Part shown: positions 8,858-51,760 of the stretch, in pieces | Layout of the letters: the number at the start of each line of letters is the position of its first letter | How positions within the stretch are numbered: position 1 is the stretch's first letter | Origin: Eledone cirrhosa | Lineage: Eukaryota | Length of the DNA: 64,000 bases | Reading direction: 5' to 3' | Assembly: GCA_964016885.1 (NCBI GenBank) | Contig: OZ024741.1 | Coordinates: 307,396,001-307,460,000, forward strand | Program-made: the position numbers and the translations under genes | The notes under the pieces: model-generated | The model's input: only the letters and a program-made list of their open reading frames with translations | Databases searched by the model: none | What the model was told of the DNA's origin: nothing

Positions 8858-9842
8858 TTTGCTCTCCTTTTCTCCTTTCCTCGTTGCTCTCGTTGCTCTC
8901 CTTTTCTCATTGCTCTCATTGCTCTCCTTGTTCTCCTTGCTCTCTTGCTCCCCTTTTCTCCTTCCTCCCCTTGCTCTCCTTGCTCTACTTTTCTCATTGC
9001 TCTCCTTACTCTCCCTTTCTCCTTGCTCTCCTTGCTCTCCTTGCTCTTCTTACTCTTCTTTTCTCCTCCCTCTCTTTGCTCTCCTTACTCTACTTTTATC
9101 CTTCCTCTCCTTCCTCTCCTTTTATCCTTGCTCTATCTGCTCTCCTTTTATCCTTGCTCTCCTTGCTCTCCCTTTCTCATCGCTCTCTTTGCATTCCTTA
9201 CTCTCCTTTTCTCCTTCCTCTCCTTGCTCTCCCTTTATCTTTGCTCCCCCTGCTCCCCTTTTCTCCTTGCTCTCCTTGCTCTCATTGTTCTCCTTTTCTC
9301 ATTGCACTCCTTACTCTCTTTGCTCTCCTTGCTCTCCTTACTCTTCTTTTCTACCCCCTCTCCTTGCTCTCCTTTTATGCTTGCTCTCTTTTTCTCATCG
9401 CATGCTTGCCCTCCTTACTCTCCTTTTCTCCTTCCTCTCCTTGCTCTCCTTTTATCCATGCTCTCCCTGCTCTCCTTTTATCCTTGCTTCCTTGCTCTCC
9501 TTTTCTCATCGCTTTCCTTGCATTCCTTACTCTCCTTTTCTCCTTCCTCTCCTTGCTCTCCTTTTATCTTTGCTTCCCCTGCTCCCCTTTTCTCCTTGCT
9601 CTCCTTGCTCTCCCTTTCTCCTTGCTCTCATTGTTCCCCTTTTCTCTTTGCTCTCCTTGCTCTCCTTACTCTTCTTTTCTCCCCCCTCTCCTTGCTCTCC
9701 TTTAATCCTTGCTCTTCTTGCTCTCCTTTTGTCATTCCTCTCCTTGCTCTCCTTTTGTCATTTCTCTCCTTGCTCTAATTTTCTCATTGCTATCATTGCT
9801 CTCCTTTTATGCTTGCTCTCCTTGCTATCCTTGTTCTCCCTT
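8858..9842. repeat. Pyrimidine-rich degenerate tandem repeat (CTCTCCTTG-like units)
   Basis: ~1 kb of C/T-dominated 9-mer-based repeats; source of the spurious Leu/Ser/Pro ORFs. Confidence 0.9.
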
Positions 9843-16623: not shown

Positions 16624-17348
16624 TTATTATTATATTATATAATTATTATTATTATATATATAATTATTATTATTATTTTTTATTTTCCCTTCGTTTTTAA
16701 CAGCACTCTTCAATTACACCTAACTCTTATTTATCATATCTATATGAATTAATATAAATTTATCAATATAAATATACCTATCAATTTAATTAATTTATTT
16801 TCTTTTTATAGATGTAAACTCCCTATAATTTAAATAAGATTGATATTTTTCACTAACACATTTATCGTAAAATTTTATTCTCCTTAGATATTTACATTGG
16901 CATTATTCTTTTATAACATCAATTTTTCGTGTACTTTTTACCGACTTGACCTATTTTCATCCCTAAAATAATCTTTTCATTCATCATACTCTTTCCATTC
17001 AAAACTGAAATCTGCCTTCCTCTACCCTTAAATTAAATTTCTACTACTACTATTCTATCAACTTGACCACTTACTACCTTTCTATTGGTCAATTCAAAAC
17101 CTGTTCCCAAACAAACCTATTATATTAAATCTTTGTTGGTTTTTTTCAATAAACAAATATCATTATTTCTGAAGACAGCATATATATGTTTAGGTATGTA
17201 TATTCCCTGTGATAGTTTGTAAAAATTTTACATAGATCTATATGATATACATACCAACACACACATATATATCCTAGAAACGATCGTAAAATGATGAACT
17301 TTTTAATATAAGGAACTGTTTCTTTGTTTTTATTCATTATTTTTATTA

Positions 17349-17415
<67 letters not shown>

Positions 17416-17449
17416 TGGAGAGAGAGAGAGATAGTAGATAAATAGATAT

Positions 17450-17594
17450 ATTTGCCACAGGGGCGTAAAAAGCCCACAGAGGGACTAGCTTCGGCCACAG
17501 AGGGACTTCAACCCACGACCTCAGATGACTTTTAGATGATGTCATTAACAGTCTGATGCTCAGCCGACTGAGATATGCGGTCTAACTTAACAGT
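17450..17594 (-). mobile_element. tRNA-headed short element with a Tx1-like 3' tail, in (TATC)n
   Basis: Minus strand: 12-nt leader, tRNA cloverleaf 17582-17492, TTTTT, then GCCCCTGTGGCAAATATATCTAT. (TATC)-type repeats on both sides. Confidence 0.65.
17492..17582 (-). tRNA. tRNA-like sequence (Lys-like body, anticodon reads GTT) with a 19-nt insertion at 37/38; probably a pseudogene or SINE head
   Basis: GACCGCA-TATCTCAGTCGGCTGAGC-A-TCAGA-CTGTTA-[19 nt]-A-TCTGA-GGTC-GTGGGTTGAAGTCCCTC-TGTGGCC-G. T-loop reads GTTG instead of GTTC. Confidence 0.6.
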
Positions 17595-17645
17595 TAGATA
17601 GATAGATAGATATTTAGATATAGATAAATAGATAGACAGACAGAC

Positions 17646-17706
<61 letters not shown>

Positions 17707-22673: not shown

Positions 22674-23552
22674 TGGTTGTCTGTCTGTCTATCGATTTTT
22701 GGCACACATCTCCTCTTAGAATCTCTCACGGAATTGCACCGAAATTGCTATACTTGTACATTGAGCCCTAGCGAAGACATCGGAAAAAAAAATTTAAAAT
22801 TGACCCACCCTATGTGACGAAATCGAATATAATGTATCGATTTTTGAGCGTAAGTTATCAGTTATTTCCCTTTGTTCTGTTTACATTGAGCGTCTTACGT
22901 AAAAAATTACGTTGGCTTTCTCAGTTGTCGAGCCAGCAAAATATTGACCTGCAAAATTCATCAGTTCGAACACTAAGCTTCCGTTTTGCTTCATTTCCAT
23001 TTAAAAGCATTTTAAAACAATAATTTTACTTGAAAACAAGTCTATTTAAAGACTACGTAAAACAAGCAAATATTTCGTCGTTAGGCGTGCAGACAGACAG
23101 TCGTGCAGAGAGGTGATATACGCGTGCAGACAGACAGTCGTGCAGAGAGGTGATATAGGCGTGCAGACAGATAGTCGTGCAGAGAGGTGATATAGGCGTG
23201 CAGACAGACAGTCGTGCAGAGAGGTGATATAGGCGTGCAGACAGACATAACTGATAATTTGGTTATGCTAATGTTTTTCTCTGCGTTGCAGTGTTTACAT
23301 TTTCGATCTTTGTTAATAAATAACCAGTGCAGTTTCTATCCCCAGCATCCTCTTTTGTTATAACATTCGGGTTATCGTTATGTTTTCTTAACTTCATAAG
23401 GCATATTGTTGGTTGAGGGAATATTAATCAAAAACACCACATGCAAGTCTGCACAGTAGACACTACAGTTTTTAAGCCAAGAAAGAAACTTAACATTGTA
23501 ACTTTAACACAGCTACTGAGCGACCCCGAGCAACGCCGGGCTTTACTGCTAG
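22660..23552 (+). mobile_element. Non-autonomous Helitron, copy 1
   Basis: 3' hairpin CCCG-AGCAACGC-CGGG followed by CTAG|T; 5' TATATAAA..(GTCT)n; internal 36-bp minisatellite. Confidence 0.8.
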
Positions 23553-24609
23553 TATATATATAAAGCTGTGGTTGTCTGTCTGTCTATTGATTTTTGGCAC
23601 ACATCTCCTCTTAGAATCTCTGACGGAATTGCACCGAAATTGCTATACTTGTACATTGAACCCTAGCGAAAACATCGGAAAAAAAATATTTCAAATTGAC
23701 CCACCTTATGTGACGAAATCGAATCTAATGTATCGATTTTTGAGCGTAAGTGACGAGTCATTTCCCTTTGTTCTGTTTACATTGAGCGTCTGCGTGCAAA
23801 AATTAAAAAAATTACGCTGGCTTTCTCAGCGTTTAAAATGACATTAACACAATACACGAACAGTTGTCGAGCCAGCAAAATTTTGACCTGCAAAATTCAT
23901 CAGTTCGAACACTAAGCTTCCGTTTTGCTTCATTTCCATTTAAAAGCCTTTTAAAACAATATTTTTACTTGAAAACAAGTCTATTTAAAGACTACGTAAA
24001 ACAAGCAAATATTTCGTAAAAAAAAGCAAAAATTATATAAGTTTATTTAAAATATATGTATCTGTAAATTTCGTTAGGCGTGCAGACAGACAGTCGTGCA
24101 GACAGACAGTCGTGCAGACAGACAGTCGTGCAGACAGACAGTCGTGCAGACAGACAGTCGTGCAGAGAGGTGATATACGCGTACAGACAGATAGTCGTTC
24201 AGAGAGGTGATATACGCGTGCAGACAGACAGTCGTGCAGAGAGGTGATATAGGCGTGCAGACAGACAGTCGTGCAGAGAGGTGATATAGGCGTGCAGAGA
24301 GACATAACTGATAATTTGGTTACGCTAATGTTTTTCTCTGCGTTGCAGTGTTTACATTTTCGATCTTTGTTAATAAATAACCTGTGCAGTTTCTATCCCC
24401 AGCATCCTCTTTTGTTATAACATTCGGGTTATCGTTATGTTTTCTTAACTTCATAAGGCATATTGTTGGTTGAGGGAATATTAATAAAAAACACCACATG
24501 CAAGTCTGCACAGTAGACACTACAGTTTTTAAGCCAAAAAAGAAACTTAACATTGTAACTTTAACACAGCTACTGAGCGACCCCGAGCAACGCCGGGCTT
24601 TACTGCTAG
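23553..24609 (+). mobile_element. Non-autonomous Helitron, copy 2 (tandem)
   Basis: Direct repeat of copy 1 with indels; same hairpin + CTAG|T end at 24606-24610. Confidence 0.8.
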
Positions 24610-40017: not shown

Positions 40018-40487
40018 CCTGCAATAGATCGACTCCTGCGCTTGATGGTCCGTAGATGTTGTGAGAGGAATATGATGTTATCTGCCTGATATATACAGAC
40101 TTGTTCAATAGATCGACTCCTGCGCTTGATGATCCGTAGATGTGAGAGGAATATGATGTTATCTGCCTGATATATACAGACTTGTTCAATACATGGGCTC
40201 CTGCGCTTGATGGTCCATAGATGTGAGAGGAATATGATGTTATCTGCCTGATATATACAGACTTGTTCAATACATGGGCTCCTGCGCTTGATGGTCCGTA
40301 GATGTGAGAGGAATATGATGTTATCTGCCTGATATATACAGACTTGTTCAATACATGGGCTCCTGCGCTTGATGGTCCGTAGATGTGAGAGGAATATGAT
40401 GTTATCTGCCTGATATATACAGACTTGTTCAATACATGGGCTCCTGCGCTTGATGGTCCGTAGATGTGAGAGGGATATGATGTTAGC
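40018..40487. repeat. 81-bp minisatellite, ~6 units
   Basis: Unit ATATGATGTTATCTGCC...GATGTGAGAGGA recurs every 81 bp; two more units at 41440-41600. Confidence 0.9.
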
Positions 40488-42266: not shown

Positions 42267-42475
42267 GGGATGGACACACGCGTATAACTTGCTGAGTAAG
42301 TTCTGTTTAAATTTCTATAGAAATTCTTGTCTGATAACTTTAATTTTTGTACCATTTTGTAGAGGGACTGCCAGGTCAAACTTTGATCTGGTCAGTCTCT
42401 CAAAATATTCTACGCCTTTAGGCGAAATAGTTAAAAAAAAAGTTTTTTCTTGTTGAAAAGTCAATATTTTTTTAA

Positions 42476-44257
42476 ATGGCCGAAGCTTCTTCACCAAAAT
42501 TCGAAGGAGGAAAGGGGAAGATGAACTTACAGCTTCCCCCTGCCACTGTCACAGTAGCAGAGGTCAAGAAGATAGGTCAGCCAGAGGAAGAATTCTCTCC
42601 ACCTGTTAACCGACAACTTGACGTTACCATGGCAACAACCCAAAGAACCAACAGCAACAACAACAACAATGCGACGGTAGAAAACAACACCAATAACAAT
42701 AACAATAACAACAACAAGACCAATAACGGTGACAACAACAACAATGATAACAACAACACCACCAACGACAACAACAACACAAACAAACAAAATTTCTCCT
42801 TCGCCGAGACGACAAGGAAAACCCTCGACTATCTGCCAGTAGATATAACAAAAGCGAAGGAGCTACTGGCGGATGCGAAAAAATATATAGTGTACGGGGA
42901 AAATGGTTCATTCACAATCCATTCCCCCCCGGAACTAAAAAGCCAGAGACTCCTAAACACGGTCATGTTTAGGACAATCTCGAACAAAAGTAAAAAACCA
43001 GCTCAACCATCACAGAGCGAGATAGAGCTGGTTTTAAAAGACGTCATGAAGGACATCACCTTCATTCAGAAGGATAGACTCTACGGGAGTCTATCCATTC
43101 TCATGAAGGACAGGGACACAGCAGTGAAACTGTCCATCAAACCAATCACATCCACCGCATACACCTTCTACCCTACGTACATGGGTAGAAGAACACAAAA
43201 AATAAAAATCCACACCATCCTGCCGATTATGGACATATGGTGGGTTTTGACAGGTTTTCTGGACCTGGAGGATGACATGCTGGTGTCCATGGGAAAGGCA
43301 TCGGGTGACGCGTTCAGTGGAACGAGCCTCGAACTTGTAGTTCAAATGAGGCCCGAAAGGATCGCCCAGATCCCTGAACGCGTCATACTGGATGATCTAA
43401 CCTTCATCAACATTACCGTTGAGGGTAGACGGCCCTCGTGTTACCTCTGCGGAACCAGAGGTCACCTGAGGGCTGTCTGTCCCCAACTTAATAAGAAAAC
43501 CCCAATCCTGCCTACACCACCAACAACTGCACAACCAACACAATCACCACAACAACCACTACAAAAACAACCACCACAGCTCAAACCAAAACAAAACAAT
43601 GTCCAACCCATCCCCTCCACTCAAAAAACAAAAACAATTTCCAAAACACCCGTACCGCAAACACAACCCGAAAATATACCCCTCCCCTCCAACGCGGAAG
43701 ATGACCCTAGTTCGTCGTCAGACGAGGAGGAGCACTTCCACACAATCAAAAGAAAAAAAAGAAAACACACCTCAGACACACAAATGAAAAAAACCCCTCC
43801 CCAAAACATAACACTGACACCAACACAAAAGAGCTCACAACAGCAAACAAAAAACACCACACAAAAACAAAAACATGCATACACATACATAAATACAAGA
43901 AACAAAAAACTGTTAAACATTGTGTACAACAACAATCTAATAAAAACACAAGGGCCTAACTTCACCCAGGCAGGGGATTTCCCCCACCTCAAAATGATTA
44001 AGGCCCCACAGGACACCTATAAAACTTTAAAAAACAATTTTAAAGAGGACGTGGGTCCCCCCTGCGTCGGGCCCATTAACCGAGTCCTCCTAAAAAACTA
44101 TCCCACCCCCTCCCCAAACACCCTCACAACTCCAAGCTCCCCAACCACACAACACACTGATGCCCCCACACTTCCACAAACCACCACCCCACCCAACAAC
44201 CCATCCCCCACCCTAATGGAAATTGTGCAGCCCGATACCCGGGACACAGAGAGGTAA
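42476..44257 (+). CDS. ORF1 gag-like nucleic-acid-binding protein of the Tx1-like element
   Basis: 593-aa ORF with a CCHC knuckle (CYLCGTRGHLRAVC), an Asn-rich N-terminus and a Pro/Thr/Gln-rich C-terminus, directly upstream of ORF2. Confidence 0.88.
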   Translation: MAEASSPKFEGGKGKMNLQLPPATVTVAEVKKIGQPEEEFSPPVNRQLDVTMATTQRTNSNNNNNATVENNTNNNNNNNNKTNNGDNNNNDNNNTTNDNNNTNKQNFSFAETTRKTLDYLPVDITKAKELLADAKKYIVYGENGSFTIHSPPELKSQRLLNTVMFRTISNKSKKPAQPSQSEIELVLKDVMKDITFIQKDRLYGSLSILMKDRDTAVKLSIKPITSTAYTFYPTYMGRRTQKIKIHTILPIMDIWWVLTGFLDLEDDMLVSMGKASGDAFSGTSLELVVQMRPERIAQIPERVILDDLTFINITVEGRRPSCYLCGTRGHLRAVCPQLNKKTPILPTPPTTAQPTQSPQQPLQKQPPQLKPKQNNVQPIPSTQKTKTISKTPVPQTQPENIPLPSNAEDDPSSSSDEEEHFHTIKRKKRKHTSDTQMKKTPPQNITLTPTQKSSQQQTKNTTQKQKHAYTYINTRNKKLLNIVYNNNLIKTQGPNFTQAGDFPHLKMIKAPQDTYKTLKNNFKEDVGPPCVGPINRVLLKNYPTPSPNTLTTPSSPTTQHTDAPTLPQTTTPPNNPSPTLMEIVQPDTRDTER

Positions 44258-44281
44258 GTGCCTTTTCTCTTCACCACCAAC

Positions 44282-47200
44282 ATGGCTATGCTAAGAGTAG
44301 GCTGTTTAAATGCGCGTGGCCTGGGCTCAACTTGGAAGCAAGCAATGCTTCTAAATGACCTCAGGTCACAACGTATAGATGTGATGGTTATTTGCGAGGC
44401 CCGGATCAGCAACGTGCGACAGCTGGCCCCCACCTTTGATGACTTCGAGATGCACGCATCTCTCTGTCAGCCTGGAGGTGGGGGTGGAGTTGTCGTTCTG
44501 CTGCAAAAACATCTGGGTCTCGCAACACAGATGGTACATTTGGACCCGGAGGGTCGACTAGTGGTTCTGGACCTTGGCAGTGGTAAAGGCGGAGCGTTTA
44601 GGTTGGTAGCCGCCTACGGCCCTTTCGGGTCAATGCGGCCGGACTTCTTCCATCGTCTGGAGACTTTTCTAGGGACGTCCCGCTCCTTGCTATTAGTGGG
44701 GGACTGGAATGGTATCCTAGATGCACGCTGGGACTACGTAGGGGCCTGCCCCGATAGAGAGGGGTGTAATAGCCTCAAAGGGTTAATCGGTCGATTTGAC
44801 CTGGCCGATAGATATCGACTAGATTTTCCGACTGCGCCAACCTGGACTTGGGCAAATCGTAGCGGATCATCTAGGTCGTACCTAGATAGGTTCTTAGTTA
44901 GAATTAAGGATAAGGACTTTTTAAGTTGTCCAAAAATGCGCATTGTTGGCTATTCAGACCACAAATTAGTGACCTGCATGGTCAACCTTGACAGAACTCA
45001 TAGACAGGGCCCCGGTTACTGGAAGCTCAACTTGTCCTTGCCGGCAAGTAGAGCCTACAGGAATCGGATTAGTACGTTAGTTAAGGAACGGTTGACTGGA
45101 GCGATCGTCAACAGCAGGTGGTGGGTATCTCTAAAGAGAGAGATTAGAGTAGTCTCGATAGAATTTAGTAAGGTTCTAGCTGCGGATAGGAATAGGAAGG
45201 AAAGGGAGCTAATAGATAGAGTAGAAGAGGCAATTAGAAGCGGCGACGTGGCCAGAGTGCTAGCGTCGAGAACGGCTTTGAGCCAGTTTTTCGACGCGAA
45301 GCACGAAGGCTGCGTTGTCCGAAGTAAAATACGTGCTCTAGGGAACGAGGGGACCAAAGCTGTTAGCTGGGCCCGCGTGACAGAGGCCAACAGTGGAACT
45401 AAATCCACCATCCGGTCTTTGCGAGACCTGGATGGACGGGCGATTCTTGAGCCTAAGCAGATGTGTGAGGCCTTTCAAAGGCACTTTGCCCGACTGTTCG
45501 GGAGGGGCGGGGAGCCGGTTGGGAACGTGGACTTCGGTCCATACCTCGACGGCCTGCCGCGCCTCTCGGACAGGGAGGCGAAGTCCTGCGAGGAGCCGAT
45601 TTCGGCCGCTGAGATAGAGGACGTGCTGAGCCAATGCGGCAAACGCAAATCCCCGGGTCTCGATGGTCTTCCTTACGAATTATATCTAGCTATGCCGGAC
45701 TTGTTCCCCGATCTCCTCGAGGCGGTCTACTGCAACTGGCAACAGAACGGGAGAATTCCCTGTACTGTGACCAAGGGCGTAGTCACGCTAGTGAGGAAGG
45801 ACGAGAACAAGGGGGACGAAATAAGTAACTTCAGGCCCATAACACTGCTAAATACAGAGTTACAGATTTTGGCCAAGGTGCTAGCAAAGAGGTTGGCGCT
45901 TGTCGTGGGCAACCTGGTGGGAGATGCGCAGACATGCGCTATCCCGTCCAGGTCCATCCATGACAACCTCCACCTCATGCGATACATCATAGAGAGGGTT
46001 GGGAACGAACCCGGCTTTGGTGGGGCTCTGATCAACTTGGATCAATCTAAGGCGTTCGATAGGGTCGACCATGGTTACCTGGATGCGGTGCTAGCGGCGG
46101 CAGGCTTCGGACCCGTTTTCAGGGGCTGGATCACTGCTATGCACAGCAGCCGCATCTGCTCTAGGGTCAAGGTGAACGGCTACCTCTCGGAGCCGTTCAA
46201 AATCGCGCGGTCCATCCGACAAGGGTGCCCTCTCTCCTCCCTTCTGTATGTATTGACTCTCGAGCCACTACTGCGGAAGTTGGAGTTGTTGCAGGGCATC
46301 CCTTTGGAACCGGGATTGCGGAAAGCGGTGTCGGCCTACGCCGATGACGTGACAGTAATGGTGTCGACGGCCTCCGAAATCGAGGCGGTCGGCACCTTAC
46401 TGGAGGAGTACGAAAAGTTCACAGGGGCTAAGCTGAACCGGGACAAGTCGATCGGTTTGCAACTCGGCACGTGGAGGGGCAGACCGATGCCCTCCGATAG
46501 CGTCGTCGGACGCTGGACGGAGGGCCCGGTGAAGTTGCTCGGGGTCTGGTTCGGACCGGACCTCCAGGTGGAGAAAAACTGGGCGGAGGTTACGAACAGA
46601 GTGTTTGCACTGACCCAGAAGTGGGCCAGTTGCAAACTATCCCTGAAAGGTCGGGCGGAGGTGGCGAACACCTACATAGCGTCCGTCATCTACTACCGCC
46701 TGACCGTAGTGCCCTGCCCAAGGGAAACCCTCACCAAGATGGAGCGCGCGCTCTTCCAATTCCTTTGGAAGAGGCGGGCTCCTATGGTGAGGAGATCCAT
46801 CTGCTGTCAACACCCTTCGAAAGGAGGGCTGGGGATGCCGTGGCTAATGATGCGTAAACACGCATTAAGGCTACGGCACCTCTACGTATTCCTCACCGGA
46901 CAACCGGTGTGGGCCTCGTTTGTGAGACGAACCTTTCCCAGACTCGTCTCACTCACCGAGCTGCAATCCTGGGTCAAGCAAAGACCGAGAAAACTGGGCG
47001 CCTGGCACACTGAGTGTGCCCAGGCGCTCACCGCCCTCTGGCAGGCGGATCCGGTTATCAGTGGAGACTCCACCGCAACATTCTATAGAGGGCTGGTACG
47101 CAGCAGGTGCGACGACGCCCTCGGAGAAGCCCTAGACATGGAGGAGGACGAACTGGCCAGCCTTTTCGGTAGGACATTCAGCCCGGGACCTATGGACAAC

Positions 47201-47719
47201 TTCCAGAAGTCCCTGGCCTGGCAGTGCTACCGAGGGGCTTTACCCGTTCGAGAAAGGCTCTACAGACACGGGCGCCCGGGTAGGGACCCCGCCAAAAAGA
47301 TCTGTCCCAGATGCGTGTGCGACGAGGAAACCGTTGCACACGCATTAGTACACTGCTCGGGCGTAGCCGATCTGTGGGGCTATGTCGAACAACTGCTGTC
47401 AAGGGTGGGACCGATCCGGTTGACCACCGAGTCTATTGTAATGATCAAGCCGCCTCCCCCCTTCAAAGATGAAGCAGAGGCGGTGTTTCTGTGCGTAATA
47501 GCCATGGCGAAAGAGGTTGTATGGTGGACGCGTCTGAAAGGACTGAGGTCGGGCACCTTTCTCTCTGGCCAACAACTGGTCCGTTTCTTCCGATATCATT
47601 TCGGAAGAAGGATCAGGATGGAGAGAGAGGTGCTGCACCCCAGCCGTTTCTATGAAAGATGGGTGAAAGTGGCGAGAATGGCCCGTGTGAATGGGCCTTC
47701 ACTCTACATCAGACTATAG
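44282..47719 (+). CDS. ORF2: APE endonuclease + reverse transcriptase + C-terminal Zn finger
   Basis: APE motifs LNARGL, GDWN, YLDR, SDH. RT motifs PGLDG, FRPITLLN, DQSKAFDRVDH, IRQGCPLS, YADD. C-terminal CPRC..ETVAHALVHC. First ATG at 44282; the ORF track starts at the GTG at 44258. Confidence 0.95.
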   Translation: MAMLRVGCLNARGLGSTWKQAMLLNDLRSQRIDVMVICEARISNVRQLAPTFDDFEMHASLCQPGGGGGVVVLLQKHLGLATQMVHLDPEGRLVVLDLGSGKGGAFRLVAAYGPFGSMRPDFFHRLETFLGTSRSLLLVGDWNGILDARWDYVGACPDREGCNSLKGLIGRFDLADRYRLDFPTAPTWTWANRSGSSRSYLDRFLVRIKDKDFLSCPKMRIVGYSDHKLVTCMVNLDRTHRQGPGYWKLNLSLPASRAYRNRISTLVKERLTGAIVNSRWWVSLKREIRVVSIEFSKVLAADRNRKERELIDRVEEAIRSGDVARVLASRTALSQFFDAKHEGCVVRSKIRALGNEGTKAVSWARVTEANSGTKSTIRSLRDLDGRAILEPKQMCEAFQRHFARLFGRGGEPVGNVDFGPYLDGLPRLSDREAKSCEEPISAAEIEDVLSQCGKRKSPGLDGLPYELYLAMPDLFPDLLEAVYCNWQQNGRIPCTVTKGVVTLVRKDENKGDEISNFRPITLLNTELQILAKVLAKRLALVVGNLVGDAQTCAIPSRSIHDNLHLMRYIIERVGNEPGFGGALINLDQSKAFDRVDHGYLDAVLAAAGFGPVFRGWITAMHSSRICSRVKVNGYLSEPFKIARSIRQGCPLSSLLYVLTLEPLLRKLELLQGIPLEPGLRKAVSAYADDVTVMVSTASEIEAVGTLLEEYEKFTGAKLNRDKSIGLQLGTWRGRPMPSDSVVGRWTEGPVKLLGVWFGPDLQVEKNWAEVTNRVFALTQKWASCKLSLKGRAEVANTYIASVIYYRLTVVPCPRETLTKMERALFQFLWKRRAPMVRRSICCQHPSKGGLGMPWLMMRKHALRLRHLYVFLTGQPVWASFVRRTFPRLVSLTELQSWVKQRPRKLGAWHTECAQALTALWQADPVISGDSTATFYRGLVRSRCDDALGEALDMEEDELASLFGRTFSPGPMDNFQKSLAWQCYRGALPVRERLYRHGRPGRDPAKKICPRCVCDEETVAHALVHCSGVADLWGYVEQLLSRVGPIRLTTESIVMIKPPPPFKDEAEAVFLCVIAMAKEVVWWTRLKGLRSGTFLSGQQLVRFFRYHFGRRIRMEREVLHPSRFYERWVKVARMARVNGPSLYIRL

Positions 47720-47983
47720 GTGAGGAAGATGAAAGACCAAGGGAGCACCCCTTCTCTGTGCTCCTGAGGAGAAGGGTTGCACACTTTTTTCGGGGGTGTG
47801 TGCGACCCCCCAAGGCGCCTCCTCTCTATTGAGGATTTTGTTAAAAATTTTATTTTTTGTTATATCTTATTTTATTTTTATATTTTGTTATTGCCTCCTC
47901 CTTATTGAGGACGCCTTTTTGTGTAAACTCCCCCCTTTGTACTTGTCCCACTTTTGATGCCCTAGTGGCAAATAAAAGAAATA

Positions 47984-48039: not shown

Positions 48040-50706
48040 TAAGAGGCACTTAGGAGTGGCAACGTAGCCAGCGTGCTAGCGACGAGAACGGCCTTGGACC
48101 AGTTCTTCGACGCAAAGCACGAAGGCTGCGTTGTCAGAAGCAAAATACGTGCTCTGGGAAACGAGGGAGCCAAAGCTGTTAGCTGGGCCCGCGTGACGGA
48201 GGCGAAAAGTGGCAACAAGTCCACGATTCGGTCTTTGAAGGACCAAGACGGACGCGTGATACATTAGCCGAAGCAAATGTGCGCGGCCTTTCAGCGGCAC
48301 TTTGCTCAACTGTTCGGGCAGGGCGGCGCGCCGAGAGGGGCTATGGGTTCGGTTCATACCTCGACGGCCTACCGCGACTCTCGGACAGCGAGGCGAAGTT
48401 CTGCGAAAGGCCGATTTCGGCCGCTGAGATAGGAAACGCGCTGAGCCAATGCGGCAAACGCAAATCTCCAGGTCTCGACGGTCTACCCTACGAATTTTAA
48501 GTAGCAATGCCGGACTTGTTCTCCGGTCTCCTGGAAGCGATCTACTGCAACTGGCAGCAGAACGGGAGAATTCCCAGTTCTGTGACCAAGGGCGTAATCA
48601 CGTTAGTCAGGAAGGACGAGAACAAGGGGGATGACATAGGCAACTTCCGGCCCATAACTCTGCTCAACACAGAGTTACAGATTTTGGCCAAGGTGTTGGC
48701 AAAGAGGCTGGCGCTTGTCGTCGAAAACATGGTGGGAGAAGCGCAGACATGCGCAATCCCGACCAGGTCCATACACGACATCCTCCACCTCATGCGATAC
48801 ATCATAGAGAGGGTAGGGTGTAAACCCGGCTTCGGTGGGGCCCTGATCAACTTGGATCAGTCTAAGGCTTTCGATAGGGTTGATCATCGTTACCTGGATG
48901 CGGTGCTCGAGGCGGCAGGCTTCGGTCCCGTGTTCAGGGGCTGTATTGCTGCAATGCACAGCAGCAACATCTGCTCAAGGGTCAAGGTGAACGGCTACCT
49001 CTCGGAGCCGTTCCATATCACGCGATCCATCCGACAGGGATGCCCTCTCTCCTCCCTTCTGTACGTACTGATTCTCGAGCCACTACTGCGGAAGTTGGAG
49101 TTATTGCAGGGCATCCCTTTGGAACCGGGACTGCGAAAAGCGGCGTCGGCCTACGCCGACGACGTAACAGTAATGGTGTCGAGCACCTCGCAAATCGGGG
49201 GGATCGGCACCTTATTGGAGGAATACGAAAGATTCACAGGAGCGAAGCTGAACCGGGACAAATCCGTCGATTTGCAACTCGGAACGTGGAGAGGCAAACC
49301 GATGCCTTCCGATGACGTTGTCGGACGCTGGACGGAAGGACCGGTAAAGCTGCTCGGGCTCTGGTTTGGTTCGGACCTCCAGGTGGACAAGAACTGTAAC
49401 GAGGTGACGGCCAAGGTGGCGAACAGTTTTATAGCATCCGACATCTACTACCGCTTGACCGTCGTGCCTTGTTTAGCCAAAACGCTCACCAAAATGGAGT
49501 GCACGCTCTTCCAATTCCTTTGGAAGAAAGGGCTCCTTTGGTGAGAAGATCCATCTGATGCCAACACCCTTCAAACGGAGGGCTGAGGATGCCGTGGCTG
49601 ACGATGCGCAAACACGCGCTCAGGCTGCGGCACCTCCACGTATTCCTCACCAGACAACCGGTGTGGGCCCCGTTCGTGAGGCGAGCCTTCCCACGACTCG
49701 TCTCACTGACCGATCTGCAGTCCTGGGTCAAGAAAAGACCGAGGAAAATGGGCGACTGGCACATCGAATGTGCTCAGGCGCTCACAGTCCTCTGGCAAAC
49801 AGACCCGGCGATCAGTGGAGACTCCACTTCGACATTCTATAGAGGGTTGGTCTGCAGCAAGTGCGACGACGCGCTCGGAGAAACTCTAGGCGTAGAGGAG
49901 GACGAACTGGTCAGTCTGTTCGGTAGGACCTTCCGCCCGGGACCAATGGACAACTTCCAAAAGTCCCTGGCCTGGCAGTGCTACCGAGGAGCTCTACCAG
50001 TTCGAGACAAGCTCTACAGACACGGGCGTCCGGGTAGGGACCCTTCGAAAAAGATCTGTCCGAGATACGTGCGCGACGAGGAAACCGTCTCACACGGATT
50101 TCTACACTGCCCGGGCGTTACCGACCTGTGGGGCTATGTAGAACGACTATTGTCGCGGGTGGGACCAATCCAGTTGACCACCGAGTCCATTTTCATGATC
50201 AAACTGCCACCCTCCTTCAAAAACGAGTGAGAGGCGGTTTTCCTATGTGTTATGGCTATGGTGAAAGAGGTTATATGGTGGACGAGGTTAAAAGGGCAGA
50301 GGTCAGACACCTTTCTCTCCGGCAAGCAACTGATTCGTTTTTTCAAATAGCATTTTGGAAGAAGAATCAGGATGGAGAGAGAGGTGCTGTACCCCAGCAA
50401 ATTTTATAAAAGGTGGGTGAATGTGGCAAAGATGGCCCGAGTGGTTGGGCCTTCTCTCTATATAAGCCTGTAGGTTGAGGAAAAAAAGGAAGAGAGGATG
50501 GGAGTACTCACCCTTGGTGCTCCTGGAGATGAGGGTTGTACATTTTTTTGGGGGGTGTACAACCCCTGTGTAACACCTCCCCCCTATTGGGGATTTCAAT
50601 TGTTATTTGTTATTGTATTAATAGTTTTATTTTCATATACCTGTATGTAACCTCCCGCATTTGTATTTGTCCCCTTCTTTCGTGCCCTTGTGGCTAATAA
50701 AGAAAT
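48040..50706 (+). pseudogene. 5'-truncated, decayed second Tx1-like copy (ORF2 RT/ZnF region and 3' UTR)
   Basis: Colinear with 45224-47982. Contains stops, frameshifts and an internal deletion. ORF fragments 48507-49544 and 49589-50230 match ORF2. Flanked by (TATC)n on both sides. Confidence 0.92.
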
Positions 50707-50763
<57 letters not shown>

Positions 50764-50949
50764 CATCTATCTATCTATCTATCTACCTACCCCCTACTTA
50801 CCTACCTACCTACCTACCTACCTACCTATCTATCTATCTATCTACCTACCCCCTACTTACCTACCTACCTACCTACCTACCTATCTATCTATCTATCTAT
50901 CTACCTACCCCCTACTTACCTACCTACCTATCTATCTATCTATATATCT

Positions 50950-51202
50950 ATATCAGCCTGTAGGTTGAGGAAAAGGAGGAGGAGAGGAAAGGAGTACAAG
51001 CTCTTCGTACTCCTGGAGATGAGGGTTGCACATTTTTTTCGGGGGTCTGTGTTACCCATATAAACTGTCTCCCTCTATTGGGGAAAATCGACTAACTTTT
51101 AAATTCCATCTGTGATAACATTTTACACGTTTTTATTGTATGTAAACTTCCCCCTTTGTATTTGTCCCCTTCTTTTGTGCCCCTGTGGCTAATAAAGAAA
51201 TA
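50950..51202 (+). mobile_element. Third Tx1-like copy, 3' UTR only
   Basis: Begins AGCCTGTAGGTTGAGG (ORF2 stop region) and ends GCCCCTGTGGCTAATAAAGAAATATATC, matching copies 1 and 2. Confidence 0.85.
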
Positions 51203-51760
51203 TATCTATATATCTACATTCATAATTAATAAAGAGAGATATTTATCTACATTCATAGAAATATAGATAGCAAGCTAGCTAGATAGATAGGGGCAGACAA
51301 GGAGATGGATAAATAGATATATATATATAGATGATATATAGGTAAGTGGGTAGACAGATAGATAGATATTTGCATTTTAATCTGCCTGTAACAGCCCCCC
51401 TCCCATCTACTTGTGTCTGAATTGTTTCTGTTGTCGCTCTTAACACCTACACCTTTCACTGTACACCATACGTCCCACTCTGTCTTTTAATGTAACTTCT
51501 ATTTATATAGCAGGCTTCAGTGATTACCATTGTCTTGTTAGGAACTCGTCTTTTGATAAATTTCACTGGTTTTGTTGTCACTTCAAAATAACATTCAATA
51601 TGGCGCCCATAATTGAAAAAAAAAAAAAACTTTACAATTTATGTCCTCTAGTTCCACAGACGAATGCCTGATGTTTGAGCGAATACGTGTGTATACGTAT
51701 GAATATTTGTAAATATACTACACACACACACACACTAACGCACTTACGCACTTACACACT

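Follow-up and report, generated by a model that had tools for sequence, protein, structure and literature searches.

Fusions of a small cellular RNA with the 3′ end of a LINE have been described from several systems. Template-switch chimeras occur with several LINE clades, including L1, L2 and RTE (PMC4476161), and in papers cited there such chimeras were proposed to seed SINEs. Double template jumps have also been described (PMC2104539), and ligation by RtcB was shown for U6/L1 chimeras (PMC6789731). Human tRNA/L1 chimeras were reported from 21 loci, mostly as antisense tRNA halves, and were ascribed to twin priming (PMC13174262). In crocodilians SINEU is mobilised by Tx1-Mar, and Kibi and Koshi are Tx1 elements that target microsatellites; the same paper sets out how a SINE family can be told apart from chimeras that arose independently (PMC4494074). 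In Octopus vulgaris both L1-Tx1 and U-derived SINE families were recently active, and no pre-tRNA with a Tx1 tail is described in the available portion of that report (PMC13282606). A literature search, with most subscription journals and Repbase reports outside its scope, returned no paper on a pre-tRNA fused to a (TATC)n-targeting Tx1 element.

The locus described here, from Eledone cirrhosa, consists of one copy, now decayed, of an unspliced pre-tRNA-Lys(UUU), followed by the last ~20 bases of an L1/Tx1-type LINE, within a TATC repeat. It was probably produced in one retrotransposition, by template jumping.

Anatomy of the element

The element lies at positions 17450..17594 on the minus strand of the window, by which the whole 64-kb stretch of DNA that was analysed is meant. 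In the order in which the minus strand is read, its features and flanks are the following.

17595..17660, minus strand: 5′ flank, a degenerate (TATC)n/(TGTC)n microsatellite, likely the LINE target array
17590..17594, minus strand: ACTGT, 5 nt, matching neither the repeat nor the closest parent gene
17583..17589, minus strand: pre-tRNA 5′ leader, 7 nt, identical to the flank of the L002 gene (G000:C14:42.68 Mb)
17546..17582, minus strand: tRNA-Lys(UUU) 5′ exon, bases 1-37, with changes in the acceptor stem, D stem and D loop
17527..17545, minus strand: tRNA intron, 19 nt, at 37/38, 17/19 identical to the L002 intron; ARAGORN i(38,19) in copy and parent
17492..17526, minus strand: tRNA 3′ exon, with a 1-nt deletion and the B box mutated from TTCAA to TTGAA (C56 to G)
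17483..17491, minus strand: pre-tRNA 3′ trailer, 8/9 identical to the L002 trailer
17472..17486, minus strand: second copy of the tRNA T-stem/acceptor 3′ strand, 15 nt, repeating 17507-17493
17467..17471, minus strand: T5 junction, assignable both to the Pol III terminator and to the U-run in the 3′ end of LINE subfamily B
17450..17467, minus strand: LINE tail, 18 nt, the exact 3′ end of L1/Tx1-type subfamily B
17432..17449, minus strand: 3′ flank, a short run of degenerate TATC that passes into (TC)n and (TA)n

A cellular RNA copy (5′) and a LINE 3′ end are joined here directly and in the same sense; the head is tRNA-derived, and the 3′ end is held in common with the partner LINE (18 nt exact, subfamily B). 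The minus-strand sequence from 17594 to 17450 agreed with the sequence-only reading of this locus, which had recognised a leader, a tRNA with a 19-nt insertion at 37/38, a trailer and TTTTT. This anatomy is borne out by the sequence, Rfam and ARAGORN, but the T5 does not directly follow the trailer, as had been implied; a 15-nt repeat of the tRNA 3′ end, not mentioned in that reading, lies between them.

A tRNA was called at 17582-17492 (minus strand) by Rfam with 31.3 bits (cut-off 29), and this was the sole RNA family match across the 64-kb window. No tRNA was called at the element by ARAGORN at its default threshold; with a relaxed threshold and introns allowed, a tRNA with intron i(38,19) was reported. 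The anticodon at 17549-17547 is GTT, and that of the parent is TTT (a T-to-G change). An identity as tRNA-Asn(GTT) was considered and rejected: the body is that of Lys(UUU), and in the parent the intron pairs with the TTT anticodon loop. The 15-nt second copy overlaps the trailer by 4 nt (AGTC). At the site of the GGCC in the first copy it retains the GGGC of the parent, so the repeat predates the GGGC-to-GGCC mutation. The ACTGT at the 5′ border may represent untemplated bases or the leader of a slightly different parent.

TATC-type repeats border the element on both ends, and the 5′ flank is covered by a TRF array (17595-17706; unit TAGA on the plus strand). With microsatellite on either side, no target-site duplication could be assigned. 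The element is on the minus strand and the LINE copies of the window are on the plus strand; all of them read TATC on their own sense strand, and the claim of an orientation shared with the Tx1 copies is accordingly correct with respect to the repeat.

A 238-nt contig from a public sequencing run matched 17445-17586 without difference at a depth of 8.6, so the element is not an assembly join, although the run may derive from the assembly's own sample. The element was found in that one sample only, other public runs sharing the flanking repeat only. No empty-site allele was seen in four public runs, in which no contig spans the locus. The left neighbour at 17100-17335 is a very high-copy repeat, with a summed contig depth of >100,000 in the same run. 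Minisatellites were also observed in the window at 40022-40485 (81 bp, 5.7 copies, 97% matches), 23082-24304 (37 bp) and 8859-9839 (a degenerate 9-bp array).

Parent tRNA and LINE donor

A BLAST of the 145-mer had been expected, in the sequence-only reading, to return many copies with the same tail in (TATC)n. The genome search gave 39 matches, and the tail was covered in the self match only; this DNA search was not exhaustive, since it missed two loci (L067 and L069) that were both recovered by pattern search. The 29 other loci that were fetched from these matches are intron-containing tRNA-Lys(UUU) genes or copies, and tRNA-Lys(ttt) was called by ARAGORN, with introns allowed, in 13 of the 15 loci given to it. 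A candidate for the intron-containing parent, for which a tRNAscan-SE search had been proposed, emerged from these calls: the closest relative is the intact tRNA-Lys(UUU) gene L002 on C14, and in its alignment with the element 96 of 108 columns are identical, 11 are substitutions and 1 is a gap. Homology is confined to the stretch from the 7-nt leader through the 9-nt trailer and stops just outside it, which identifies the element as a copy of the precursor RNA and not as a DNA duplication. The exact parent may be a gene other than L002, as two of the differences match other family members.

The 3′ half of the tRNA-Lys has 94 matches in the genome, 48 of which sit in one cluster (C2, 99 Mb) that includes a 1.29-kb tandem array. 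In addition to the element, 68 copies were examined, comprising all 46 outside this cluster and 22 of the 48 inside it. The 5′ exon and intron were visible in 63/68, and none of the 68 was spliced. Introns of the tRNA-Lys(UUU) genes are 17-24 nt long and varied in sequence (C2 99.02-99.11 Mb, C1 206.12 Mb, C19 7.19 Mb and dispersed loci; L002-L030, L149-L171). Nothing relevant was found in the literature on intron-bearing tRNA-Lys in molluscs or cephalopods.

The copy is decayed. Its fold has a z of 0.06 and 97 of 200 shuffles fold as well; for L002 the z is −3.19 and the corresponding count is 0/200. A foldable cloverleaf is absent from the element, as is the conserved T-loop of a functional tRNA gene. 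Decay amounts to ~11%, comparable to the divergence among copies of LINE subfamily B.

Two LINE subfamilies, A and B, bear on the origin of the tail. Subfamily A is represented in the window by the following features.

42268..47983, plus strand: full-length L1/Tx1-type LINE, subfamily A, flanked by TATC arrays; related to the donor subfamily but not itself the donor
42476-44257, plus strand: LINE ORF1, 593 aa stop to stop, with a CCHC knuckle
44258-47719, plus strand: LINE ORF2, 1153 aa stop to stop, with endonuclease, RT and zf-RVT (Pfam PF03372, PF00078, PF13966)

This LINE is intact and young, and three truncated relatives are nested after it, at 48040-51210. The tail motif GCCCCTGTGGCWAAT (≤2 mismatches) has four matches in the window, against 0.06 expected by shuffling: 17450 is the element, and 47959, 50684 and 51179 are three LINE ends. 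The earlier observation that the tail matches the Tx1 termini of the window is therefore real as a motif match, but subfamily B is the better fit, with 18-19 nt matching exactly. The window's own LINE ends, which match exactly over ≤12 nt, were rejected as the tail donor. The match reaches 26 nt in L033, a plain LINE end of subfamily B, and the element's shortened tail has two matches in the genome, namely the element and L033. The terminal 8-nt A-rich piece is absent from the element's tail and likewise from L033.

Exact subfamily B tails number 735 genome-wide. Sampled copies of this subfamily are ~71-83% identical to the ORF2 end of the window LINE, so the tail of the element derives from a LINE and not from a SINE tail. 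The end pattern of subfamily A has 668 matches in the genome, and 30 sampled 3′ ends were 97.6-100% identical to the window LINE. Judged by divergence, subfamily B is the older of the two, its long copies being 86-93% identical to one of them, L092. Both subfamilies prefer the same target. Among truncated copies, 11 of 14 from subfamily A and 14 of 28 from subfamily B have a run of at least two TATC units in the 30 nt that precede their 5′ end, compared with 0.2-1.0% of background windows; (TATC)n follows the 3′ end in 26/30 A and 24/30 B copies, the A figure being biased because the pattern contains part of the repeat. Copies of ≤100 nt made up 2/30 (A) and 7/30 (B) of those sampled. LINE copies nest in clusters, and ends as short as 35-55 nt occur. 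A fold test of the subfamily B 3′ end gave no stable hairpin (z 0.42).

The domain layout of the Tx1 clade (AP-type endonuclease, RT and C-terminal zinc finger; ORF1 with CCHC) is present in subfamily A, to which B is linked by DNA similarity, and the target-sequence preference of that clade was found in both A and B. A protein search gave no Tx1-named match among the 120 matches listed; the best named relative of the LINE protein among them is from Argonauta hians (67% identical). The partner LINE is presumably a Tx1 element, an assignment that fits its domain layout and target preference.

Probable origin of the element

The arrangement of the repeats bears on how the parts were joined. The element sits at the LINE's target; a TATC run precedes the tRNA and another follows the tail, and none lies between the two. 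For a LINE that targets TATC, this fits one insertion primed on LINE RNA. By a rough count, the chance of any tRNA-Lys copy lying ≤40 nt from such a tail is ~0.0009. Microhomology was found at each joint (CCC(T)CTGTGG, the U-run and A(A/G)TC). Counting against this reading, the LINE part is only 18-23 nt long and its core resembles the tRNA's own 3′ end, and neither a target-site duplication nor an empty-site allele was seen.

We infer from these features a single event that may have run as follows. Subfamily B protein would have nicked the (TATC)n array and started reverse transcription on its own RNA. After ~25-30 nt it would have reached the U-run and jumped to the 3′ end of a tRNA-Lys, of which 15 nt would have been copied; the CCC(T)CTGTGG shared by the LINE end and the tRNA 3′ end may have guided this jump. 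A second jump or a slip would then have led to the trailer end of the unspliced precursor, possibly guided by the A(A/G)TC shared by trailer and T-loop, and the intron and leader would have been copied before copying closed onto the upstream TATC. The target site would have been inherited by the copy only because the LINE RNA was copied first. Alternatively, the 15-nt repeat could have arisen after insertion. The element has no detectable offspring and is predicted to be inert. No second chimera of a small RNA with Tx1 was found among the 68 tRNA-Lys copies or among 69 U6 ends outside the C19 array (from the 100 of 158 matches listed).

Two separate insertions, in which a very short LINE end and a pre-tRNA retrocopy came to lie side by side at different times, are an unlikely alternative. 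LINE ends of 35-55 nt and nested LINE clusters would provide the one part, and dispersed pre-tRNA-Lys copies without a LINE tail, several of them beside (TA)n, the other; nor does a target-site duplication link the two. However, a LINE that targets TATC left none between tRNA and tail, no LINE sequence remains upstream of the tRNA, and random adjacency has the low chance given above. Upstream TATC was flagged for only one other tRNA-Lys match, as a 9-nt chance run.

Fusion at the RNA level, with the pre-tRNA or a cut piece of it ligated (e.g., by RtcB) to a short LINE 3′ fragment and then retrotransposed once, seems decidedly unlikely. Ligation ahead of reverse transcription would yield an identical sense fusion, and the tRNA splicing complex naturally acts on pre-tRNA that contains an intron. 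Against this, a Pol III precursor ends in U-OH, and the intact intron means that the splicing endonuclease had not cut. The 15-nt repeat would need two ligations, and microhomology is present at both joints. The sense orientation and the U-run junction do resemble U6/L1 chimeras with demonstrated RtcB ligation, but the RtcB reaction needs a 2′,3′-cyclic phosphate (PMC6789731). Taking template jumping and ligation together, the element is very probably a single-copy chimeric retropseudogene.

The sequence-only reading had favoured a SINE or a chimeric retrocopy with the target specificity of Tx1. The chimeric retrocopy is supported; the SINE is not, given that a single copy, named beforehand as refuting it, is what was found. 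The junction of tRNA and tail has one genome-wide match at ≤2 mismatches (control 0), and the shortened tail occurs elsewhere once, in a LINE end. The intron pattern occurs at seven places in the genome, and the six others are without the LINE tail; nor was such a tail present within 205-300 nt in any of the 68 other tRNA-Lys copies examined. A tRNA head was seen at 0/60 sampled LINE ends (among the matches listed). Three B-box-plus-tail pattern searches gave no tRNA-headed LINE end, three matches of one search not being tRNAs; these patterns require an intact B box, so that the element itself is no positive control and diverged chimeras are missed. It is accordingly most improbable that the element is one copy of a tRNA-headed family that the LINE mobilises in trans and directs to (TATC)n. 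In its favour are the head-plus-LINE-tail layout with TATC flanks, the existence of Tx1-mobilised, target-biased SINEs (SINEU, PMC4494074) and a genome DNA search that missed two tRNA copies. Against it, in addition to the copy number, the B box is mutated and the T5 terminator (17471-17467) precedes the tail, where Pol III would be expected to stop; the many dispersed copies of a SINE2 family were not found, and the intact Pol III promoter, with no terminator ahead of the tail, is missing.

A related reading, in which a tRNA-headed SINE with a borrowed, microsatellite-targeting Tx1 tail was founded at this locus or has its last survivor here, so that a SINE birth is on view, is very unlikely. 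If it were true, the likeness of the LINE and tRNA-Lys 3′ ends would have guided that birth, and more copies would be hidden in TATC arrays that are diverged or unassembled, or in the genomes of relatives.

A tRNA gene, bona fide or decayed in place, or a DNA-level duplicate with a tail-like sequence arisen by chance from the tRNA 3′ end, can practically be dismissed: the intron is kept, the Rfam score is barely above its cut-off and three near-repeats of CCC(T)CTGTGG suggest local duplication, but parental homology does not extend beyond leader and trailer, the fold does not surpass that of shuffled sequences, the LINE match is exact over 18 nt, and the third CCC(T)CTGTGG unit is preceded by TACG and followed by CAAAT, both of which agree exactly with the LINE and do not occur in the tRNA.

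As a single dead chimera, the element has little importance for its host. It preserves, as a fossil, the step that has been proposed for the birth of SINEs, in which a LINE tail is acquired by a tRNA head. The T5 ahead of the tail and the defective B box illustrate why a founder of this kind would not succeed. It also suggests that a microsatellite-preferring L1/Tx1-type enzyme can jump onto a nuclear, unspliced pre-tRNA.

Other small-RNA fusions and comparison with known systems

Fusions of small RNAs with retroelements look common in the genome of Eledone cirrhosa. A U6 survey gave 158 matches, of which 100 were listed; 69 3′ ends outside the C19 array were used. Among these listed matches, 34 of the 69 were directly followed by a recurring repeat end or head (22 by one short repeat end, 12 by one of two heads or bodies that we take to be SINE-like) and none by a Tx1-type tail. 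The same held for 8 of 34 dispersed tRNA-Lys copies, none with a Tx1-type tail; the heads and bodies beside these are again assumed to be SINE-like.

The short end, of ~60 nt and presumably RTE-like, lies within a few bases of the 22 U6 3′ ends, and many of these U6 copies are 5′-truncated. Among the fetched loci the motif was beside U6 only (17/17). These loci may have arisen as repeated chimeras at a single hot spot, or they may represent a short retroposon with a U6 head. In a number of unspliced pre-tRNA-Lys copies, some of them 5′-truncated or decayed, the trailer T-run is joined to the head, body or tail of a SINE-like sequence; these copies are likely products of the same chimera process with other partners. 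Some of the small-RNA fusions could instead be later insertions behind the T-run.

U6 followed by the ~60-nt repeat end: L136, L137, L143, L172, L175-L177, L187, L188, L190-L192, L196, L199, L200, L203, L204, L208, L211, L214, L215, L220
Pre-tRNA-Lys joined to SINE-like sequence: L008, L067, L069, L146, L155, L161, L163, L166, L167, L170, L015 (8/34 by motif; L015, L067 and L069 by eye)

Further U6 copies are joined to other apparent retroelement 3′ ends, some resembling coding sequence (L135, L138, L141, L142, L144, L182, L219). Head-to-head inverted pre-tRNA-Lys or U6 segments were seen beside (TA)n (L005/L027 at G000 C1765 81017-81163, L173, L194) and are suggestive of twin priming or fold-back duplication. 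The C19 array holds ~35 tandem U6 genes with a 1.8-kb unit (G000 C19 31.78-31.84 Mb; L103-L130). The frequent fusions of U6 and pre-tRNA to several repeat ends may merit a survey more than the locus of the element does.

The known systems are compared here as far as they are described in the available portions of the papers cited. Small RNA/LINE chimeric retrogenes (U6/L1, and U6 with L2, RTE and SINEs in platypus and lizard) share with the element a 5′ Pol III RNA, a joint at a U-run, the sense orientation and a short LINE 3′ end, and they too are independent single events (PMC4476161, PMC6789731). The element differs from these in having a complete, unspliced pre-tRNA as its head, an L1/Tx1-type LINE with a preference for (TATC)n as its partner, a LINE part of only ~20 nt and no target-site duplication that can be read. 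Human tRNA/LINE-1 chimeras likewise fuse a tRNA to a LINE in one insertion, mostly as antisense halves, whereas the element is full-length and in sense, with leader, intron and trailer (PMC13174262). The three segments of tripartite chimeric retroelements, and their explanation by two jumps, have a counterpart in the origin proposed here, except that two segments come from one tRNA species and the middle one is 15 nt (PMC2104539). In pre-tRNA retropseudogenes (Schmitz et al. 2004, cited in PMC4476161) the precursor was copied and not the mature tRNA, as in the element, which differs by its LINE 3′ end.

With SINEU and Tx1-Mar the element shares a small-RNA head tied to Tx1 machinery and its target preference, and the LINE targets a microsatellite; SINEU, however, forms multi-copy families with master copies, and the element is one copy (PMC4494074). 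By the criteria of that paper it is a chimera, because many LINE ends exist and only one copy carries the head. Its target is (TATC)n and not (TC)n, (TTC)n, (TTCC)n or (TTTC)n, and TATC is absent among the Tx1 targets in the available part of PMC4494074. The element belongs to the known class of U6/LINE, tRNA/L1 and tripartite chimeras, and is mildly unusual in that a full-length, sense, unspliced pre-tRNA is placed on the end of a microsatellite-targeting LINE.
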